Part shown: positions 5,384-18,428 of the stretch, piece by piece | Layout of the letters: each line of letters opens with the position of its first letter | How positions within the stretch are numbered: position 1 is the first letter of the stretch | Assembly: GCA_000004695.1 (NCBI GenBank) | Contig: CM000151.3 | Span: forward strand, 6,464,001-6,528,000 | Reading direction: 5' to 3' | Source of the DNA: Dictyostelium discoideum | Taxonomy: Eukaryota | DNA length: 64,000 nucleotides | Notes under the pieces: generated by a model | What the model was told of the DNA's origin: nothing | What the model saw: the letters and a program-made list of their open reading frames with translations, nothing else | Databases searched by the model: none | Position numbers and translations under genes: made by a program

Positions 5384-7238
5384 TTATAATTTTTGAACTT
5401 GAAGGGTACCATTTGGTACAAGACCAGCATCTTGAACTGAAATTGATTTTAATTCATCGTTTGTATAAATTTTTCTTGGATAAGTACTTGAAAGTGTGAA
5501 TTTACCATGTTGAGAAGTATTATTTGAAATAAAAGTATGAACATCAATTAGTTTGGTTGATAATGGGAAAGTACCTTTAATGGTGGTACCATCTGTAAGA
5601 CGAATTTGAATGAGTGATTCTGTATAGTTTTGTTTTGGTACATAAACTGGAACTGGAGTTGGAGTTGTAGTGGTGGTGGTGGTGGTGGTGGCAACATTGT
5701 TATTTAGGGTTGCATTCTTTTTAGCAGCTCTTTCAAGACGATCAGCTTCAACTTTTGCTTTAATTTTTGCTTTTGCAATACGATCTGCTTCTTTTTCTTT
5801 TCTATCTTTTTCTTGTTCTCTCTTTAATTGATCCTCTTGCCATTTGGTGAGAGCTTGTTGAGTTGATTTACCACCTTGACGACGATTAATCTCTCTTTCA
5901 ATCTCTTTTTTAGCCTCTTCTTCGGCTTTCTTTACTCTAATCTCTTGAATTCTTGCTTCTAATCTTTTCTTTTGTTCTGCTTTCTCCTCTGGTGTCATTT
6001 GATAGTTTTCAATATCATTTTCATGTGCCACAAATTCATGTTCTGGATTATGTTTATTTGTATCTTTACAAGTTTGACAAAGATCATAATTTGGGCAAAC
6101 CTTACATTTATATCTATAACCTATGATTTGATTTTGACACATATCACATAATGCATTATGAACAGTTGTTGGATATTCTTTTTGTTCACTTGTAGTTGTT
6201 GTTGTTGTTGTGGTGGTAGTTGTACTACCATCAGTATTTGTAGTAGATGGGGTTGTAGTTGTTGTTGATTCACTTTTAGTGGTAGTAGCACCAGTATCAC
6301 CTTCTAATGGATCATCAATAGTTGGAGAATCCATATTTTCAAAAATCCAATCCATTGCAGATTGAGAACTTGAATTATTTACCATAATCAATGCTTTTCT
6401 ACATCTATTCTCTGGAAAACCCATATCTATTAAATCTTTCATCATAATTGGATCTGGTTGTGTTGCTCTTGCTGGTGGTCTACTCTTTGTTGCTGTTGAT
6501 GATGATGATGATGTAATTGGTGTTGGTACAGTTGGTGATGTTGTAGTATTACCATATTGTTGTTGATATTGTGCTTGTTGTTCTTGTTGTTTTTTTTCTA
6601 AATTATCTAAATAAGCTTGACGACTATTTCCACTGCCACCCCCACCACCACCCAATGCATTACCTTGTGATGCAAATGAAAGTTGTGGTTGTAATCTTTC
6701 AATTGAACTTTTTAATTGATTTTTATCAGCACCACTAAATTCATGAACTTGTTTTCTTTCAATAAAGAATTTAAATGTTGGCATTGCTCTAACACCTTGA
6801 CTTTGTGTTGTTGACTAAATAAAATATAAAAAAATAATAATATAAAATTATTAATATATATATATAAATTTAAAAGTTTATTATAATAATTTAAATTTTT
6901 TTAAAAAAAAAAAAAAAAACTACAAGAAATTTTTTTTTTTTACTTACTTTACACTGATCAACATCAACTTTTAAGAAAATAACATCTTTATATTCTGATG
7001 ATAATTGTTCGAAATATGGACTAATCATTTTACATGGTCCACACCATGTTGCTGTAAAATCTACAACAACTAATCTTTTACCTGCTGTAACTAATTCTGA
7101 ATCAAGTTGATTATCAACTAAAACTATTGATTATTAAAAAAAAAAAAAAAAATTTCATATTAAAACCCAATCATCAAATTTTTTAATTTACTAAATTAAT
7201 ATTATTATAAAAATATACTCACCTTTTACTCTTGACAT
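5384..7238 (-). CDS. thioredoxin-domain protein with UBA, ZZ-type zinc finger, charged coiled-coil and C-terminal UBX domain. Three exons: 7223-7238, 6948-7123 and 5384-6814
   Basis: Exon 1 encodes MSRVK and ends at a GTGAGT donor. Exon 2 encodes the thioredoxin core ...[41 protein letters not shown] (WCGPC active site) and ends at a GTAAGT donor. Exon 3 continues [17 protein letters not shown]... and contains the UBA ([38 protein letters not shown]), the ZZ finger ([29 protein letters not shown]...H.PEHEF), an E/K/R-rich coiled coil and the UBX ([17 protein letters not shown]...[13 protein letters not shown]...LVPNGTLQV). Confidence 0.8.
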
Positions 7239-9086: not shown

Positions 9087-9126
9087 ATAATTTTTAGAAT
9101 CAATTCATTTGGTCGAAGGTTCGATT
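9087..9126 (+). promoter_or_regulatory. Pol III terminator (TTTTT at 9091-9095) plus an ex-B box copy (GGTTCGATT at 9118-9126), about 32 bp after the tRNA
   Basis: A T5 run lies immediately 3' of the tRNA. A second B-box-like motif (consensus GGTTCGAATCC) lies at the position typical of Dictyostelium tRNA genes. Confidence 0.5.
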
Positions 9127-9169
9127 AATCAATATTAAAAAAAAAAAAAAAAAAAAAGTTTTAAATAGG

Positions 9170-9173
<4 letters not shown>

Positions 9174-9243
<70 letters not shown>
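9174..9243. repeat. 70-nt T homopolymer with one A, starting 87 bp 3' of the tRNA-Ser-like gene
   Basis: Read directly. It could be the poly(A) tail, seen from the opposite strand, of an old minus-strand retroelement remnant. It could equally be a simple homopolymer. Confidence 0.9.
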
Positions 9244-9248
<5 letters not shown>

Positions 9249-9289
9249 TTGAGGAAATGGAGAAAAAAAAATAAAATTCTTTTTTTCCT

Positions 9290-11928: not shown

Positions 11929-11939
11929 AACTTTTGTTT
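11929..11939. repeat. target-site duplication copy 1 (AACTTTTGTTT) at the poly(A) end of the twin retroelement insertion
   Basis: An identical 11-mer occurs at 18080-18090, immediately beyond the 5' end of the full-length element. Confidence 0.5.
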
Positions 11940-12781
11940 TTTTTTTTTTTTTTTTTTTTTTAATATTGGATTAACAAGATTGATATATGTCCATCTGTGT
12001 TAATACGAGTTTTATTTAATATTTATTTATAGGCTTATCATTTAAGCTGAAGGGTTATTTTAATCATATGAATTGATCAAAAGATATAATATTTGGGAGA
12101 GATGATTCTGGAATACAATAGTAATTAGCTGTTGTTTTTCTTAGCTTGATCGTTGAGGTGAGAAGGATCTTAGGATCTTTGAAATTATTATGGTCTTTTG
12201 CTGATAAGTTTTTCAGATCTTTTGCTTTTTTGATGTATTCTAGAGTGGCCAATTTGTGCCATTTCTTTAGAAGGGAGCTGTATGATAGTGATTCATTTGT
12301 TAAAGGATCTTCACTGTATATTTGATTGCAAATCCAAATCCAAATGTTGTGGAGGATAAGGGCCATTAGGTTTCTATATGCGTATGATCTGGATAGATCA
12401 TAGTCTATTGCTTTATAGTTCCATTCAAAGTATTCTTTGTGGAATCTGTGGTTGGCGTAATCTGCATTCACTTCTTGATCTTTTTTTTGCTGTCGGTGAT
12501 AATTTTGGAGTTATTCTATTAATGAAATTGTTATTTTGCCTAATTCTTGTATGGTGCCAGTTTTTACCTTTGCCTGTGGTAATATAGATGAAATTTTTGA
12601 GTTTATTTATTTTTATGAATTGTTTTGTTTTCTTGCATGAGAAGAACAGGTGACCGTATGGGTCTTTGCTCATATCTTCTTTGCAGAGTGGGCATTGTTT
12701 GTTGTGAAGGTAGTTTATTGGAAGGCATCTGGCATGGAATCTAAACATTGTGTCTCTTGTTTTAGGGTCTTTTATCTTCAG
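11940..12781 (-). mobile_element. 5'-truncated copy of the same TRE3-like non-LTR retrotransposon: its 3'-terminal ~820 bp plus a poly(A) tail
   Basis: 11962-12781 is about 98% identical to 12806-13625. The poly-T run at 11941-11961 is a poly(A) tail on the minus strand. The copy directly abuts the poly(A) of the full-length copy. The ORF fragments at 12064-12471 and 12425-12748 are frame-shifted pieces of the ORF2 C-terminus. Confidence 0.8.
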
Positions 12782-12906
12782 TATTTTTTTTTTTTTTTTT
12801 TTTAATATTGGATTAACAAGATTGATATATGTCCATCTGTGTTAATACGAGTTTTTATTTAATATTTATTTATAGGCTTATCATTTAAGCTGAAGGGTTA
12901 TTTTAA

Positions 12907-15900
12907 TCATATGAATTGATCAAAAGATATAATATTTGGGAGAGATGATTCTGGAATACAATAGTAATTAGCTGTTGTTTTTCTTAGCTTGATCGTTGAG
13001 GTGAGAAGGATCTTAGGATCTTTGAAGTTATTATGGTCTTTTGCTGATAAGTTTTTCAGATCTTTTGCTTTTTTGATGTATTCTAGAGTGGCCAATTTGT
13101 GCCATTTCTTTAGAAGGGAGCTGTATGATAGTGATTCATTTGTTAAAGGATCTTCGCTGTATATTTGATTGCAAATCCAAATCCAAATGTTGTGGAGGAT
13201 AAGGGCCATTAGGTTTCTATATGCGAATGATCTGGTTAGATCATAGTCTATTGCTTTATAGTTCCATTCAAAGTATTCTTTGTGGAATCTGTGGTTGGCG
13301 TAATCTGCATTCACTTCTTGATCTTTTTTGGCTGTCGGTGATAATTTTGGAGTTATTCTATTAATGAAATTGTTATTTTGCCTAATTCTTGTATGGTGCC
13401 AGTTTTTACCTTTGCCTGTGGTAATATAGATGAAATTTTTGAGTTTATTTATTTTTATGAATTGTTTTGTTTTCTTGCATGAGAAGAACAGGTGACCGTA
13501 TGGGTCTTTGCTCATATCTTCTTTGCAGAGTGGGCATTGTTTGTTGTGAAGGTAGTTTATTGGAAGGCATCTGGCATGGAATCTAAACATTGTGTCTCTT
13601 GTTTTAGGGTCTTTTATCTTCAGTATGTTGTTGAAGAGTTGATTATAGCTGTAGCCTCTTAAGTTTAGAGATGATTGGAATTCCGTTTTAGGGATGGTTG
13701 GATTTTGGTCTTGAATTGTGGTATACCATTCTGCCAGTGAAAGTGGTTGTCCATTTTCGTTTTTTATGGATGTGAGATTATTGTTGAAGATTGCTTTTTT
13801 TATTCTTATTTTGTTCCATTCGTCTAAGTTTTCTTTTAGGTATCTGGATGTGAATTTGTTTTTTTGGATCTGATATTCCCAGCTTTTGTGATGAGATGAG
13901 TTTGTTTGTTTGGTTTCTAGTGCTAGGATGAACTGGTTTATGATCCAAAGTTTCTGCGCCAGTTGTCTCAATTCTATATTCCAAATGTTCCAGCCCCCTA
14001 CTTTTAGTGGGTATCTTGCTCTTTTGGTTCTCATTAAATTAATAACTTGAAATCCACTAGCATTTTTGTTGTTTGGTGCCGATAAAAACCATTCGACTAA
14101 TTTATTGATTTGGTTTAATTCCTCTTCCTTAAAGTTCTCTACATATGAATAGTAGGTTAATTTAGAGAGTGCGAATGCTTTGAGGATGTTGGTTTTGGTT
14201 TTGATTGTTGAGTCAGTGGTTTTCCATAGTACTAAGGATGATCTTATTGTGTTTAATATTTCTGGCATTTTTCTTGTTATCCCTTTGCCTGTGAAGAAGT
14301 ATCCCAAGTATCTTTCTGGATTTGTAGATATTGGAATTCTTTGGTTGGTATTGTCTGGGTTGCCTATAAGAATTGATGAAGATTTGTCGATGTTTAGTTT
14401 TGAGGAAGTGGCTTTGCAAAATGAATTGAAGTGTTGTAGTACTAATTCAAGTTGTTGAGAGTCTGGGACCATTGAAGCCGAGTCGTCTGCAAAGCTTTGG
14501 AATTTCTCTCTGTGGTTGCTGTTGTTTAGAGGAAGGCCAGTAATTCGGTCATCTTGTAAAATTTTTCTAGCTAAAGCCTCTATTACAAGGACGAACAGGG
14601 TGGGTGATAGTGGATCTCCTTGTTTAACTCCTCTTTTGATCTCAAAGGGTATAGTAGTTCTACCATTAATTTCAATTCTTGCTTCAGATTTGGTGAGTAG
14701 ATTCATTATCAGGTTGATTATATTGGTTGGAATGTTGATGTGTTGTAGTGATCTGAGTATTGAACCGTGTGAGATCGAGTCAAAAGCTTTTTCGAAATCA
14801 TATAGTGTAATTATTCCGTTAATTCTTTTATCATTACAATAGTTGATTAATTCGTTCATTGATATGATATTATCTATAATGAATCTGCCTGGTACGAAAC
14901 CTTTTTGATTGTGGTTGATCACTTTCGTTAGTATTGGGATTATTCTATTGTTTATTAGTTTTGAGTGGATTTTATATATACAGTTAGCCAGTGTAATTGG
15001 TCTTCTGTTTTTGATTAGTTCGGGGTCTCCCTTTTTAGGTATCGTGATAATGAGGCCTTCTTTGTAATTTTTGCTAATTAGATGAGGATTTCTTAGAGTG
15101 TCGTTGAATGCTGAGGCCAGTATTGGAGCTAGTTTTTCTTTGTGTGTTATGTAGAATAAGTTTGGAATTCCATCTGGGCCTGGAGATTTGTGTGGGTTCA
15201 ATTGTTTTATTACTTCTAGGATCTCTTGTGATGTGAATTCATTTTCAAGGTTGTCCCATGTTGAGTCCCTGGTCACTGTCCAATTTTCCAACATTTCATA
15301 ATGAGATGGTGGGTCATCTTCTTTGTAGTCATAAAGATTTGAGTAATATTTTACGTATTCTTCTTCGATCAATTCCTGTTTGTTGATTGTTCTACCTTGT
15401 GCATCTTTTACTGCGTTGATGGTGAAATCATTGTGTCTTTTCTTGATTCTCGCGGAGATGTACTTGAGTGAGGTTTCTTCGCAATAGTTGTTCAATTCTT
15501 GTTTAAGTTGTTCTTCTCTTTTTTTAGATTCATTTATTGCTGAAAGGGTTGCGAAGGCTTGGTCTTTAAATTCTGTCTCTAGTAGGGAGATTAGATTTTT
15601 GATGTTTGCCTTATTGTTGTAGTCATTTTGTTTTTGAAATTCTGTGTATAGTTGTTTTATTTTGTTTAGTAAGCTGTTGAGTTGAGAGAAGGAAATAGAG
15701 TTATGGTTGGATGACAGCTCCCTTGAATAATCGTTAAGTAGGAAGTCTATTTTCTTAAGCATTATGCTTGAGAGGATTGAGGATTTTTTTAATCTCCATC
15801 TGCGCTTGTTCATCTGTATGTTGGGTAGAGTGAAGGTGGTTGATAGGAAGTTGTGATCTGATAGAGGTATGTCATTAATTTTTGGGGGGATTAGGTTCCT

Positions 15901-16611
15901 TAAGTATAATTGGCTGTAGTTGATTATGCTATTGTTAAGGTATATTCTGTCTAGTCTCCTTTCCAAGATTCTTGTGAGGTTATTGTTTGTGTTGTGTATC
16001 GTTCTTGAGAAGGTGGGTCTTTTATTTAGTTGGTCCATATCCATTAGGTTATTTGAAATTCTGATGGCTTCGATTACTGTGGCCATCTCATCTGGGGATT
16101 GTGTTGTCAAGTTGCCTTGGTCATCATTTGATGTGTGATTGTCATTGAAGTCTAAACAATTGAAGTCGCCTGCTATGATGTCGATGTTTTTTTTAGGGTT
16201 AGACGTTAGGTTGTGGTATTGGTTGTTGAAGTGTTTGTTTAGTGTTGAAGCTAGTGTTTTTCTTTTATCAGGTTGGGCCGGGGCGTATATGGCCAAGATT
16301 CTCGTTGTGGTATCTTTTATTAGAATGTCTGATATTATTAGTCTACCTTCTATTATGAATATTGGTGAGAGTTTTATGTTTTGGTTGTTGTGGTTTAGTA
16401 TTCCTATTCCGTTGCCTCTGTTGGTTGCGCTAATGATGGAGCCAGGAAATAGCTGGTGTGCTTGTGTTGCGTCGGCGTTGAGTTCATTGACTATGGTTAG
16501 TGCCAATGAGTTTGGGGGGGATTGGGATTTGATAAAGTCTGTTTTGTTTTTGAAGGAGGTGTCAGTGCCCCAACCTCTGACATTCCATTGGTTGATTTTG
16601 ATTACTACCAT
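12907..16611 (-). CDS. retrotransposon ORF2: apurinic-type endonuclease, reverse transcriptase and C-terminal Cys-rich (CCHC-like) domain
   Basis: 1234 aa. APE motifs: QWNVRGW, IIAGDFN, RLDRIY, LSDHNF. RT motifs: PITLANCIYKI, QKGFVPGRF, ITLYDFEKAFDSISH, GVKQGDPLSPTLF, SFADDSA (a YxDD variant). C-terminal zinc-knuckle-like segment: CPLCKEDMSKDPYGHLFFSC. Confidence 0.9.
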   Translation of the reverse strand: MVVIKINQWNVRGWGTDTSFKNKTDFIKSQSPPNSLALTIVNELNADATQAHQLFPGSIISATNRGNGIGILNHNNQNIKLSPIFIIEGRLIISDILIKDTTTRILAIYAPAQPDKRKTLASTLNKHFNNQYHNLTSNPKKNIDIIAGDFNCLDFNDNHTSNDDQGNLTTQSPDEMATVIEAIRISNNLMDMDQLNKRPTFSRTIHNTNNNLTRILERRLDRIYLNNSIINYSQLYLRNLIPPKINDIPLSDHNFLSTTFTLPNIQMNKRRWRLKKSSILSSIMLKKIDFLLNDYSRELSSNHNSISFSQLNSLLNKIKQLYTEFQKQNDYNNKANIKNLISLLETEFKDQAFATLSAINESKKREEQLKQELNNYCEETSLKYISARIKKRHNDFTINAVKDAQGRTINKQELIEEEYVKYYSNLYDYKEDDPPSHYEMLENWTVTRDSTWDNLENEFTSQEILEVIKQLNPHKSPGPDGIPNLFYITHKEKLAPILASAFNDTLRNPHLISKNYKEGLIITIPKKGDPELIKNRRPITLANCIYKIHSKLINNRIIPILTKVINHNQKGFVPGRFIIDNIISMNELINYCNDKRINGIITLYDFEKAFDSISHGSILRSLQHINIPTNIINLIMNLLTKSEARIEINGRTTIPFEIKRGVKQGDPLSPTLFVLVIEALARKILQDDRITGLPLNNSNHREKFQSFADDSASMVPDSQQLELVLQHFNSFCKATSSKLNIDKSSSILIGNPDNTNQRIPISTNPERYLGYFFTGKGITRKMPEILNTIRSSLVLWKTTDSTIKTKTNILKAFALSKLTYYSYVENFKEEELNQINKLVEWFLSAPNNKNASGFQVINLMRTKRARYPLKVGGWNIWNIELRQLAQKLWIINQFILALETKQTNSSHHKSWEYQIQKNKFTSRYLKENLDEWNKIRIKKAIFNNNLTSIKNENGQPLSLAEWYTTIQDQNPTIPKTEFQSSLNLRGYSYNQLFNNILKIKDPKTRDTMFRFHARCLPINYLHNKQCPLCKEDMSKDPYGHLFFSCKKTKQFIKINKLKNFIYITTGKGKNWHHTRIRQNNNFINRITPKLSPTAKKDQEVNADYANHRFHKEYFEWNYKAIDYDLTRSFAYRNLMALILHNIWIWICNQIYSEDPLTNESLSYSSLLKKWHKLATLEYIKKAKDLKNLSAKDHNNFKDPKILLTSTIKLRKTTANYYCIPESSLPNIISFDQFI

Positions 16612-17864
16612 TATGAGATGATATCGATCTCCTCTTGGGAGTCGTATAGCTGCGGTTTGGATGGTGAAGGGTAGATACTCTCTATGAAGCTCTCAATGAT
16701 TCCTTTCCTTTCTTTTTTGACAGGTGTCTTAGGGGTGGATGGGATGTAAGGGTTGCTTCTGTTTATTGTTGGTGAGAGTTGGGTGACCTCGTTGTTTGAG
16801 TGGATTTCCTCGTTCTTGCGTTTATGTGATGGAGGGATGTTTGGTGTCTTCTCTCTGTTTTCCGAGGATGAATGGATGTTAGTGCTCGTTTTGTTGGCAT
16901 TGTCTTTTTGGATGGCGTTGGATGTTGTGGTAGTGGTTGTGGTGGGTTTGACAGATTGAGATTCTGCTTGGTTTTTGGGGGGAAGAGGTTGAGAGGACTT
17001 TTTTGATTGGGCTTTTTTCTCTTGGGTTGATTGTTTATCAGACTGATTGTTTGCTGGGTCATTTGTTTGTTGTTGTGGTTTTGGTTGAGAGGATTTGATT
17101 GCTATCCTGTTTTGGGTGTTGGGAGGATCATCTGTCATCTCATCTTCTAATGGTTCTTCCGTGTTGTTTAACTCTACTTTCTTATTTTTCTTTTGTGAGG
17201 AGTAGGTTTTGGTGGCCGTTCTGATGGTAAAGTTGGCGATTTCTGTATTGTGTTGGCCAGATTTCATTTGATCGCCTATTTTGCATTCTATTAGACCGAA
17301 TACTAGGAGGTGGTCGGTGGAGTATATAGTATGGTATATTGCATAGGGTATTTCTTCTGCAAAGGCAGTTTTGATGAGGGCGTCCACTATTCCTGCCTTT
17401 TCTCTTGGAATTCTTACTCTTCCTGTGAGGACGTGGTAGTCTCTACTGGAGGTGATGAAGGTTCCCAATTTGCTTCTATCTCTAATGATATTTAGGAGAG
17501 ATTGTTCGTTTTTAATCATCAGGTGTATCATTTTTCTAGTTCCTTTGCCTATGTATATCTTGTCGATTGGGATATCGTAGTTTGAGAGTGTTTTTCTCAT
17601 TTCTTCTAACCCCATGAGATCCATTTTGGGGAATTCGAGTGTAATTGGGTAGAATCCGTTGTTTTTCTCGTAGGTTGAGAGCGCAGTCATGTTCAATATG
17701 GTCTCGCAGTATTTGGAGATGTCTTTGAGGCCTATTGATAATTTGGGATAGGTCTCCTTTATCTCTGCTGTTTTTGTGGAGAATTCCTTAATGAAGTTCT
17801 CTGATGCCTCGTCCATATGGGTGGAGGGGTTGGCCATTTTAGCCGCGTCTGCGTAGGAATTCAT
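16611..17864 (-). CDS. retrotransposon ORF1: 417 aa with a Pro/Gln/Thr-rich basic C-terminus, typical of a nucleic-acid-binding ORF1 protein
   Basis: The ORF lies directly upstream of ORF2, with its stop overlapping the ORF2 start at 16611. It has no cellular homolog features. It is preceded by a ~215-nt 5' UTR. Confidence 0.75.
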   Translation of the reverse strand: MNSYADAAKMANPSTHMDEASENFIKEFSTKTAEIKETYPKLSIGLKDISKYCETILNMTALSTYEKNNGFYPITLEFPKMDLMGLEEMRKTLSNYDIPIDKIYIGKGTRKMIHLMIKNEQSLLNIIRDRSKLGTFITSSRDYHVLTGRVRIPREKAGIVDALIKTAFAEEIPYAIYHTIYSTDHLLVFGLIECKIGDQMKSGQHNTEIANFTIRTATKTYSSQKKNKKVELNNTEEPLEDEMTDDPPNTQNRIAIKSSQPKPQQQTNDPANNQSDKQSTQEKKAQSKKSSQPLPPKNQAESQSVKPTTTTTTTSNAIQKDNANKTSTNIHSSSENREKTPNIPPSHKRKNEEIHSNNEVTQLSPTINRSNPYIPSTPKTPVKKERKGIIESFIESIYPSPSKPQLYDSQEEIDIIS

Positions 17865-17998
17865 CTCGATGGGATTCCTTTGAATCGGCGATTTGGTAAG
17901 TTATATCTGTAGATCGTGGTGGATTGGTGATTTTTTTTGAAAGATTGGTTAAAATTGACCGAGATTAAGGATAGAAAAGGATGAATTACTTTTCACGT

Positions 17999-18072
17999 GT
18001 ATCTTGTATCCTCTTGATCGCGGTACGGTTTTTTTCGTATCTTGTATCCTCTTGATCGCGGTACGGTTTTTT
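17999..18072. repeat. two tandem copies of a 36-bp unit (ATCTTGTATCCTCTTGATCGCGGTACGGTTTTTT) in the 5' UTR and promoter region of the retroelement
   Basis: Read directly: 18001-18036 and 18040-18072 are identical. 5' repeats are a common feature of TRE-element internal promoters. Confidence 0.8.
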
Positions 18073-18079
18073 CAAACAT

Positions 18080-18090
18080 AACTTTTGTTT
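18080..18090. repeat. target-site duplication copy 2 (AACTTTTGTTT), flanking the 5' end of the full-length element
   Basis: Matches 11929-11939. Confidence 0.5.
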
Positions 18091-18113
18091 AATTAAAAGG
18101 TTGAGCCCAATAA

Positions 18114-18129
18114 GAGAATCGAACCAGGG
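18114..18129 (-). promoter_or_regulatory. ex-B box (GGTTCGATTCTC on the minus strand) about 35 bp downstream of tRNA-Leu, with a T5 Pol III terminator at 18150-18154
   Basis: This is a second copy of the B-box consensus GGTTCGAATCC, outside the tRNA. It matches the Dictyostelium ex-B arrangement. Confidence 0.5.
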
Positions 18130-18158
18130 ACATTATATGGTTTCTTGGGAAAAACTGT

Positions 18159-18239
18159 TGATAAAGGCGAGATTCGAACTCGCGAAGCCGAAGCATAAGA
18201 ACTTGAGTCTTACCCATTTGACCACTCTGGTACTTTACC
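18159..18239 (-). tRNA. tRNA-Leu(CAA), type II, 81 nt, no intron
   Basis: Minus-strand read: GGTAAAG-TA-CCA-GAGTGGTCAAA-TGG-G-TAAGA-CTCAAGT-TCTTA-TGCTTCGGCTTC-GCGAG-TTCGAAT-CTCGC-CTTTATC-A. Acceptor stem is 7 bp with one G.U pair, D-stem is 3 bp, anticodon stem is a perfect 5 bp, the loop has U33 and G37 flanking anticodon CAA, the variable arm is 12 nt, and T-stem and loop are canonical. Confidence 0.85.
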
Positions 18240-18428
18240 TTTTGAAAATAATTGAGAATTACGGTTGATATTGACCACTGTGATACTTTACCTTTTGAAA
18301 CCATGAATTACGGTGAGTCTTACCCATTTGACAACTCTGATACTCTACCTTTTGAAAACCATTGGGAATTACGGTTGATTTTGACCACTTTGGTACTTTA
18401 CCTTTTGAAAACCTTGGCTATATGGGTT
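18203..18428 (-). repeat. four tandem ~50-62 bp units, each carrying the 5' part of tRNA-Leu (positions 1-23 or 1-34, including the A box) plus ~30 bp of its 5' flank. The most proximal unit is the 5' end of the functional gene
   Basis: Plus-strand units (boundaries approximate): 18203-18265, 18266-18314, 18315-18375, 18376-18428. All share ttgacCActNtgNtactttaccttttgaaaa...gaattacggt. Units 1 and 3 also carry gagtcttacccat (tRNA positions 24-34). Confidence 0.75.

Follow-up and report, generated by a model that had tools for sequence, protein, structure and literature searches.

A head-to-tail array of TRE3-A-like retrotransposon pieces within a single target-site duplication behind a tRNA-Leu(CAA) gene of Dictyostelium discoideum

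Introduction

TRE3-A of Dictyostelium discoideum, formerly known as Tdd-3, is a non-LTR retrotransposon of the L1 clade that is targeted to tRNA genes. Its published consensus is 5229 bp long, those of TRE3-B and TRE3-C are 5279 and 4734 bp, and 67 copies of TRE3-A have been counted at distances of 14-228 bp from tRNA genes (PMC5006619). TRE3 elements integrate about 40-150 bp downstream of a tRNA gene, in its orientation and following a B-box rule (PMC5911963, PMC5006619), and are reported to keep strictly to a distance of about 100 bp from these genes (PMC5006619).

Head-to-tail joins of the kind considered here have their closest precedents in template jumping and in tandem insertion. The R2 reverse transcriptase jumps between templates in vitro and in vivo (PMC3414825), and L1 ORF2p forms concatemers of a first and a second template and adds untemplated bases (PMC10830420). 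The products of such jumps (R2 to U12 or tRNA, U6-L1 retrogenes and ORF2p concatemers) resemble the array described below in that the cDNA would have been continued on a second RNA, the junction carries no target-site duplication (TSD) and between zero and a few extra bases, and one TSD pair surrounds the chimera. The array differs from them in that the acceptor would be a further copy of the element itself, with entry at the end of its poly(A) tail, and the strand would leave from an internal position rather than from a defined RNA 5' end, with up to three pieces joined. Tail-to-internal dimers in Drosophila (McGurk & Barbash 2018) and R1 tandems in rDNA are frequent for site-specific or active elements. 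A tandem double insertion predicts a target copy within the junction (PMC5932611), and 33 nt of rDNA lie between R1 copies, whereas the junctions of the array hold no target sequence.

Here we analyse this array in a 64-kb stretch of D. discoideum DNA, referred to throughout as the window. The event behind it is of a known kind, and the array is a real and tidy example at tRNA-Leu(CAA). Coordinates are positions in the window, and all features given are on the minus strand.

Results

The tRNA-Leu(CAA) gene, the Pol III target directing the insertion, was located at 18159-18239 using ARAGORN, and its internal B box GTTCGAATC at 18171-18179 by motif scan. A T5 Pol III terminator lies 5-9 nt past the 3' end of the gene (18150-18154), followed by an external B box GGTTCGATTCT, also found by motif scan, 33 nt past that end (18115-18125). 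From the last base of this box it is 24 nt to the tRNA-proximal copy of an 11-bp TSD, AACTTTTGTTT (18080-18090; AAACAAAAGTT in the sense direction), the distal copy of which lies at 11929-11939. The inserted DNA starts 79 nt from the 3' end of the tRNA gene and 36 nt past the external B box, and the element is on the same strand as the tRNA gene, as is usual for downstream integration of TRE3; five further copies of the family are situated 53-110 nt behind tRNA genes. The first-pass annotation had placed a TRE3-type element in the canonical position and orientation behind this gene, which the distance, the strand, the terminator and the external B box bear out.

The same annotation took the two 11-mers for a single TSD pair. 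Within the 64 kb, on either strand, AACTTTTGTTT is found at just two places, both of them outer borders of the array, and the chance of meeting it at one fixed site is 3e-6. A search for a longer duplication around the 11-mers showed that the match between the two copies extends into the context on neither side. In the wild strain L008 the allele is empty: the tRNA gene and the external B box, which is kept, are followed by a single target copy and then directly by the distal flank. Since the empty site has one target copy, the 11-mers are a genuine TSD, and the whole block between them is a single inserted unit that is missing in the wild strain. That the 11-mer arose by chance or from low complexity is ruled out, as the motif is unique to these borders in the window and contains G and C, and is countered further by the non-extending context and the one copy at the empty site. 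The alleles compared at this locus are those of two NC4-type assemblies and of this one distant, empty wild strain.

Next to the proximal TSD copy lies a 7-nt filler, ATGTTTG (18073-18079), which belongs to neither target nor element; it is the same in a second assembly and missing in three other full-length copies. It is followed by a stretch that repeats the element's first 36 nt and adds a G (18036-18072), a 5'-terminal duplication that is specific to the tRNA-Leu(CAA) insertion, other full-length copies beginning at the equivalent of 18035. The two repeat units noted earlier are therefore present at 18036-18072 and 17999-18035, with a length of 37 nt each instead of 36 bp. In the window assembly, the full-length TRE3-A-like body measures 5232 nt (12804-18035). 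Its ORFs are intact. ORF1 (16611-17864; 417 aa) gave no credible domain by Pfam. ORF2 (12907-16611; 1234 aa), whose start overlaps the ORF1 stop by 1 nt as TAATG in the -1 frame, is predicted to encode a divergent APE endonuclease, a reverse transcriptase and a C-terminal CCHC finger. The reverse transcriptase matches RVT_1 with an E value of 1e-33 (Pfam), and the Exo_endo_phos match is weak (E 0.005, under the Pfam cut-off) yet spans the whole profile. The translation shows NVRG, NEL, GDFN and SDH motifs and a CX2C...HX4C finger, and ORF2 is collinear with human L1 ORF2p (E 3e-50), while its first 264 aa gave only noise against PDB sequences.

Two ORFs with ORF2 in the -1 frame, the order APE, reverse transcriptase, zinc finger, the lack of LTRs, a 3' oligo(A), variable 5' truncation and a flanking TSD all agree with a TRE3 element. 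The family of the window element is the largest TRE3-type cluster in the public assemblies of our collection, with 79 members at 90% identity, and the next relative is only 58% identical. Typed by length (5232 nt versus a published consensus of 5229 bp) and abundance, the element is very probably TRE3-A. The element itself shares the overlapping ORFs, the domain order, the oligo(A) tail and the length of about 5.23 kb with TRE3-A and shows no difference from it in these features; what is peculiar is the insertion, with its doubled first 36 nt, its 5' filler and a head-to-tail partner from which no TSD separates it.

This partner is reached through an internal poly(A) of 20 A's (12784-12803; same in the second assembly), which is joined straight to a 5'-truncated copy comprising the last 822 nt of the element (11962-12783). 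The truncated copy begins within ORF2, a short way upstream of the zinc finger, carries a frameshift through a change of CC to AAA at 12487-12488 (one substitution and one inserted base), and ends in a terminal poly(A) at 11940-11961. The latter counts 22 A's, since the run of 25 T's at 11937-11961 includes three T's of the 11-mer, or up to 25 with the A's common to the TSD. Alignment of 11962-12783 with 12804-13625 gave seven differences between the copies (5 substitutions and 2 indels; about 99.1% identity). The truncated second copy of the 3' end and its poly(A) had thus been recognized correctly in the first-pass annotation, and its measurements are revised here: 822 nt for about 820 bp (11962-12781), about 99.1% for some 98% identity, A20 for an internal A24, and 22 nt for a terminal tail of about 21 nt (11941-11961).

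At the internal junction, the A20 directly abuts TACTGAAG, with 1 nt of possible microhomology, no target sequence and no second TSD pair. The A20|TACTGAAG junction and the same seven differences also occur in an independent Nanopore+Illumina assembly, by which an assembly artefact is ruled out as the source of the twin junction. Two of the seven differences are alleles also found in other genomic copies, and both window copies carry three subfamily-diagnostic alleles (13140, 13000 and 12873), unlike the copies at loci L001 and L002; these SNP arguments rest on assemblies of a 67-copy repeat, in which polishing or consensus errors are possible. Among the eight loci compared, a small sample for the question of read-through from a tandem donor, the A20|TACTGAAG junction was found at no other locus.

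The Nanopore assembly, probably of AX2, has the same outer junctions and twin junction as the window. It holds three pieces between the TSD pair, as opposed to two in the window, with an extra internal junction, A31|CAAGATAC, that has no TSD, and an internal deletion with a GAT filler. The two assemblies disagree in the interior of the full-length copy, at about 16997-13716. Compared with the Nanopore assembly, the full-length copy of the window is a mosaic of two of the three pieces: its first 1.1 kb has 4 locus-specific alleles in common with the proximal piece, its last 0.9 kb is identical to the middle piece, and its mid part shows none of the private alleles of either piece (9 and 12) and does not have the 73-nt deletion. 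It has no private allele of its own. A simple single-crossover recombinant of the two pieces is ruled out by this allele pattern. Judging from these sequence comparisons, the seemingly intact full-length copy of the window is probably a collapsed or consensus-like rendering of two defective pieces, and the original description as a full-length plus a truncated copy, which fits the window and not the Nanopore assembly, may not be the true structure. It is unlikely, though far from negligible, that the window strain truly carries two pieces, one of them an intact full-length copy, and that the three-piece structure is a true strain difference or an error of the other assembly. A deletion between the 2.5-kb direct repeats of a three-piece array could yield a two-piece array in vivo, the AX2 and AX3/AX4 laboratory lineages have been apart for decades, and intact ORFs would suit a real copy; however, the allele pattern fits a repeat interior filled from the reads of many copies, and long reads can be trusted further in structural calls than low-coverage Sanger shotgun (8x for AX4, PMC12745789).

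To place the array within its family, we compared it with other loci. Independent insertions at other tRNA genes have a TSD in seven of seven cases, of about 6-16 bp. At L001 (GCA_054883475.1), two full copies of the same family lie head-to-tail downstream of one tRNA gene and in the same orientation as here, but separated by 34 bp, and both copies have an 11-bp TSD of their own (TAAGAGATCAA and ATAATGCATAA), with 22 bp of original spacer between the two, in contrast to the one TSD pair and missing spacer of the window array. Own TSDs are likewise found at L002, L006 and L007 and at the first fragment of L005, in keeping with the earlier expectation that independent insertions leave separate TSD pairs. 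Poly(A) tails in the family comprise 19-31 A's, and truncated copies span 0.3-3.3 kb. All three junctions between a poly(A) and an internal position (window, same locus in the other assembly, and L005 at a tRNA-Arg gene) are without a TSD, and their breakpoints are all different. The L005 junction reads A19-GC-TGGGAATATC, in which GC is filler, and the joined pieces differ at 11 of 1080 positions and belong to different sublineages. Composite junctions without a TSD thus occur at two of the six TRE3-A loci examined. Jump-like marks are seen in the 36-nt re-copy with its 7-nt filler at the 5' end of the array, in the deletion with GAT filler of the other assembly and in the GC filler of L005.

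Discussion

Template jumping of the reverse transcriptase between different RNAs in one integration event is our leading explanation for the array; it is unproven, and we give it slightly less than an even chance. Integration by target-primed reverse transcription would have taken place 79 nt downstream of tRNA-Leu(CAA), in the orientation of the tRNA gene, with the enzyme starting at the distal nick and copying about 822 nt of one TRE3-A RNA. It would then have jumped to the poly(A) 3' end of a different TRE3-A RNA and copied that RNA, and the three-piece structure seen in long reads would call for one further jump. Before second-strand synthesis, the first 36 nt would have been briefly copied again and 7 nucleotides, untemplated or filler, added, the outcome being a single 11-bp TSD around a concatemer. 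As expected of a single event, one TSD pair surrounds the composite, the empty site has one target copy, and a complete poly(A) runs into the next piece, the join holding no target sequence and at most a few extra bases.

The first-pass annotation had offered template switching in a single event or duplication of the 3' segment. Single-event switching is still the best candidate, but switching on one RNA and duplication of the 3' segment both fit poorly with seven sites that differ in both assemblies and two alleles that are shared with other copies. Because the pieces are about 1% apart and have alleles of unlinked copies, simple duplication or re-copying of one RNA is disfavoured, and a single event needs two or three donor RNAs in one complex, which runs contrary to the cis-preference usual for such elements. 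Moreover, an end-to-end jump should leave from the 5' end of an RNA, yet the 822-nt piece starts deep in ORF2, and a single event therefore has to suppose a broken RNA. In favour of template jumping, the tail of every piece is of ordinary length: with 126 A's in all, the five tails of the composites match the 118 expected from one ordinary tail per piece and not the roughly 151 expected if later copies had landed in older tails, in a test that is small and rough. It is possible, if somewhat doubtful, that the TRE3-A reverse transcriptase chains the cDNAs of two or three different RNAs per tRNA-targeted integration and that it does so often.

Among the other mechanisms, successive tRNA-directed insertions come next, and we regard them as rather unlikely. 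The 822-nt piece would have arrived first with the 11-bp TSD, and later TRE3-A copies would have entered at the position again measured by TFIIIC, precisely on the 5' border of the piece already in place, through blunt or target-deleting cleavage and hence without a new TSD. Several TRE3 copies per tRNA gene are common (L001, L005), and tRNA-directed targeting makes repeat hits at one site far likelier than for ordinary LINEs. The pieces resemble products of different donor copies, and private changes per kb are most frequent in the distal piece, the frameshift among them; its private alleles lie at 12393, 12383 and 12487-12488. The literature further expects newer copies closer to the tRNA (PMC5006619), tail-to-internal LINE tandems in Drosophila have been taken as double insertions (PMC5932611), and an upstream cut of the top strand leads to target-site deletion instead of duplication (PMC2881922). 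However, had the same staggered cuts been used again, the junction should hold a third copy of the TSD, and no target copy lies in any of the three internal junctions. An intact proximal 11-mer would need both strands to be cut exactly at the boundary of TSD and element, and twice so for three pieces, whereas the seven clearly independent insertions all have ordinary TSDs and the second copy at L001 landed away from the first with its own TSD.

A nested insertion, in which the proximal element is older and owns the 11-bp TSD while the truncated copy later entered its A-tail, appears improbable. The second TSD would be invisible because it is made only of A's, which accounts for the single visible TSD pair, the different donors and the distal 5' truncation without unusual enzymology. 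Insertion of L1 and Alu into older A-tails is well known in mammals, and TSDs of the TRE3-A family tend to begin with A's, which makes priming at A/T runs plausible. Yet the new copy would lie 5.3 kb from the tRNA gene, or 8 kb in the three-piece structure, against the rule of about 100 bp (PMC5006619), and long A/T runs abound in the genome, with dozens in the window alone, without being TRE3 targets. Roughly 11 extra A's per junction would also be expected, giving the total of about 151 rather than the 126 seen.

Finally, later duplication of the 3' part of a single element by unequal exchange, slippage or end joining, blurred by gene conversion, is very improbable: the three diagnostic alleles shared by the two window copies, the known recombination of direct repeats of such size and the differing array interiors of the two assemblies speak for it, but the tail/TACTGAAG junction has just 1 nt of homology, the seven differences stand in both assemblies with two of them alleles of other copies, the joined pieces of L005 come from different sublineages, and the same kind of junction recurs three times with different breakpoints.

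Outside the field of Dictyostelium transposons, the array is an ordinary variant of LINE integration. Within it, the window shows an apparently intact, potentially active TRE3-A where long reads of a sister laboratory strain show two defective pieces, so lists of full-length, retrotransposition-competent TRE3-A elements (13 reported) may be swollen by collapsed repeats. If template jumping between different RNAs is true, the array would document at the sequence level that multi-template concatemers are made in vivo by a tRNA-targeted LINE, and the TRE3-A integration complex would use templates in trans. The piles of TRE fragments behind tRNA genes would then not all be separate integrations, which would affect estimates of copy number and activity, and, with such jumps frequent, part of the TRE arrays at these genes in Dictyostelium would owe their origin to concatemers and not to repeated targeting.

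Organization and Identity of the Array

Read on the minus strand, the array starts from tRNA-Leu(CAA) (18239-18159, internal B box 18179-18171), which is followed by a T5 terminator (18154-18150), an external B box GGTTCGATTCT (18125-18115) and the proximal copy of the 11-bp target-site duplication (TSD) AAACAAAAGTT (18090-18080). A 7-nt filler, ATGTTTG (18079-18073), and an extra copy of the element's first 36 nt plus a G (18072-18036) precede the element body of 5232 nt (18035-12804), an internal A20 tail (12803-12784), a second copy of the element's last 822 nt (12783-11962), a terminal A22 tail (11961-11940) and the distal copy of AAACAAAAGTT (11939-11929). The first-pass annotation had described this arrangement correctly in substance, with some corrections: the internal tail is A20 and not A24, the 5' units are 37 and not 36 nt long, the truncated copy is 99.1% and not 98% identical (five substitutions and two indels), and the filler at the 5' junction had been omitted. 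The window has a G+C content of 23.8% and includes DDB_G0276059 (D. discoideum chromosome 2). Immediately upstream of tRNA-Leu lies a 110-bp tandem duplication, 91% identical (18204-18300 and 18314-18410), which takes in the first 36 nt of the tRNA gene and leaves a 5' pseudo-tRNA fragment; each unit further repeats this tRNA segment internally in a shorter form. The duplication is probably old, because the wild strain GCA_054859385.1 is collinear there (L008, its orthologous locus, 6903-7076).

No domain is recognisable in ORF1 (417 aa). ORF2 (1234 aa) gave a strong reverse-transcriptase match (E 1e-33) and a weak AP-endonuclease family match spanning the full length of the profile, and its translation contains NVRG, NEL, GDFN and SDH motifs together with a C-terminal CX2C...HX4C finger. 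ORF2 also aligns collinearly with human LINE-1 ORF2p (E 3e-50). The ORF1 stop is overlapped by the ORF2 start in the -1 frame (TAATG), an arrangement reported for TRE3-A (PMC5911963). Clustering at 90% identity groups 79 closely related proteins, which derive from assemblies of D. discoideum and D. citrinum. Members of the family also follow a tRNA gene at five other loci, 53-110 nt downstream and in the orientation of the tRNA. Consensus lengths are 5229 bp for TRE3-A (67 copies, 14-228 bp from tRNA genes), 5279 bp for TRE3-B and 4734 bp for TRE3-C (PMC5006619). The element is of TRE3 type and sits at its canonical target, as read earlier; it is very probably TRE3-A, a subfamily assigned by length and abundance.

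A Single TSD Pair Bounds the Insertion

No further AAACAAAAGTT 11-mer was found beyond the two borders on either strand of the 64 kb, the match does not extend at either copy, and the probability of finding this 11-mer at a given fixed site is ~3e-6. At the internal junction, A20 runs directly into TACTGAAG; there is no second TSD, and homology is limited to 1 nt at most. In the wild strain GCA_054859385.1 (labelled D. discoideum), in which the neighbouring genes are ~90% identical to those of the window, the orthologous tRNA-Leu(CAA) and external B box are followed by ...CTCAAACTTTGATTTAAAAAGTAAGAATATTT... and then by the homologue of window 11935-11317. This site has a single copy of the target-like sequence and no TRE3; therefore, all DNA between the 11-mers was inserted and the 11-mers are the TSD, in agreement with the single pair proposed earlier. 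Elsewhere at this locus (L008 8480-8752), a fragment of 277 nt that matches the TRE3-A 3' region at 71% identity lies ~245 bp downstream of tRNA-Ser(TGA); the orthologous window site (9087-9260) has long A and T runs only.

It had also been argued that two pairs of TSDs would be expected from two ordinary insertions. TSDs were found in all seven insertions: the window composite, two full-length copies behind one tRNA with a 22-bp spacer between them at locus L001 of GCA_054883475.1 (TAAGAGATCAA and ATAATGCATAA), and four comparators, namely a full-length copy at L002 (TTAAGAAATCCATGT), a 1.95-kb copy at L007 (GTGCCCTCACTAA), a 2.2-kb copy at L006 (AAAAAATATT) and a 305-nt fragment at L005 ((AAA)GGTACC). 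In contrast, none of three complete poly(A)/internal-position junctions contains target sequence: the A20 junction of the window, a second one at the tRNA-Leu locus in GCA_054883475.1, and one at the tRNA-Arg of L005, where a 3.3-kb copy is followed by A19-GC-[1.1-kb copy]. The argument is therefore supported empirically.

Other arrays were seen at the comparator loci. In L001 1-2420, 3' fragments of at least three TRE families, all truncated at the 5' end and ending in poly(A), are stacked head to tail with no obvious TSDs between them; one is a TRE3-A with an internal deletion, at which there is ATCAGC microhomology. On the minus strand of L005 (1-8884), another two-ORF retroelement (ORF1, 444 aa; ORF2, 1047 aa, with an RT) is present as two copies in tandem, upstream of tRNA-Arg and in opposite orientation, the position expected of TRE5; arrays therefore flank this one tRNA gene on both sides.

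A Second Assembly of the Locus

GCA_054883475.1 is a Nanopore and Illumina assembly (PRJNA1300491; PMC12745789), probably of AX2-214, judging in part from proteins identical to those of AX4. The flanks of the locus are 99.7-99.8% identical to the window, and both assemblies have the same 5' junction (TSD, ATGTTTG, doubled unit). They also agree in the distal part, where the final 0.9 kb of a copy leads through A20 into the 822-nt copy, with the same seven differences, and on to the tail and the TSD. Unlike the window, GCA_054883475.1 (JBTAPE010000033.1, L003 and L004) has three pieces between the TSDs: piece A (element positions 1-2586, a GAT filler, the last 307 nt and A31), piece B (beginning 28 nt inside the canonical 5' end, extending to the 3' end apart from a deletion of 73 nt, and followed by A20) and piece C (the 822-nt copy). 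An 8-nt stretch, CAAGATAC (window 18029-18037; element positions 29-36), holds two breakpoints, the end of the window's extra 5' unit and the 5' end of piece B, the middle piece; the coincidence may be chance, or may reflect a preferred transcript start or reverse-transcriptase stop.

The first 1.1 kb of the window's full-length copy has four locus-specific alleles in common with piece A, and its last 0.9 kb is identical to piece B. Its middle has none of nine A-private alleles, none of 12 B-private alleles and no deletion, and the copy has no private allele relative to six other copies. The two assemblies, which represent near-identical strains, disagree over about 13716-16997 of the window; ORF2 is intact in the window. 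A single-crossover recombinant of A and B is ruled out by the allele pattern. Authentic ends with a consensus-like middle are the expected shotgun product of a 67-copy, 99%-identical repeat, so that the interior of the window's copy is most likely collapsed; a real strain difference seems doubtful. Of the earlier picture of a full-length plus one truncated copy, the twin junction is confirmed by both assemblies; the picture itself is probably a simplification caused by assembly.

Origin of the Composite

In both assemblies, the two copies of the 822-nt segment differ at 7/822 positions. The distal copy alone carries four of these differences, a frameshift among them, and the proximal copy alone carries one; the other two (T at 13027/12184; A-run length) are alleles present in other genomic copies. 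The joined pieces at L005 differ at 11/1080 positions and belong to different sublineages. The pieces therefore come from different donor RNAs.

We tentatively favor, at somewhat below even probability, template jumping within one target-primed reverse transcription. The single TSD pair, the complete junction tails of ordinary length, the 0-2 extra bases at junctions and other marks on the insertion that resemble jumps (the re-copied 5' segment, the fillers and an internal deletion) all fit this reading, and there is precedent in R2 (PMC3414825) and L1 ORF2p (PMC10830420). Its weakness is the assumption of several distinct donor RNAs, and of an RNA broken off within ORF2. Successive TSD-less tRNA-directed insertions are plausible a priori, as one tRNA is often hit repeatedly, and tail-to-internal tandems in Drosophila have been interpreted in this way (PMC5932611); however, such insertions should put a target copy in the junction, or else the cut must be blunt and fall precisely on the TSD/element boundary, and do so twice for three pieces, and we consider them unlikely. 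That later copies landed in older poly(A) tails, where an A-only TSD would be hidden, is more improbable still: it would put TRE3 copies 5-8 kb from the tRNA, and long A/T runs occur throughout the genome yet are not TRE3 targets. In a small and rough test, five composite tails total 126 A's, against an expected 118 for one ordinary tail each and an expected ~151 for an extra TSD per junction. Later rearrangement is very unlikely, and the duplication of the 3' segment offered earlier fits poorly, as does a switch back onto the same RNA; both predict initially identical copies. Mixtures or donor read-through take up the remaining probability.

Altogether, the array is a real and correctly observed composite insertion, that is, head-to-tail copies inside one validated TSD pair, at a canonical target, and its reading as template switching in a single event is reasonable but unproven. 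This kind of event is already known for other non-LTR elements, of which the array is a new example; the recurrence of TSD-less junctions and the discrepancy between the window and GCA_054883475.1 are the points worth following up.
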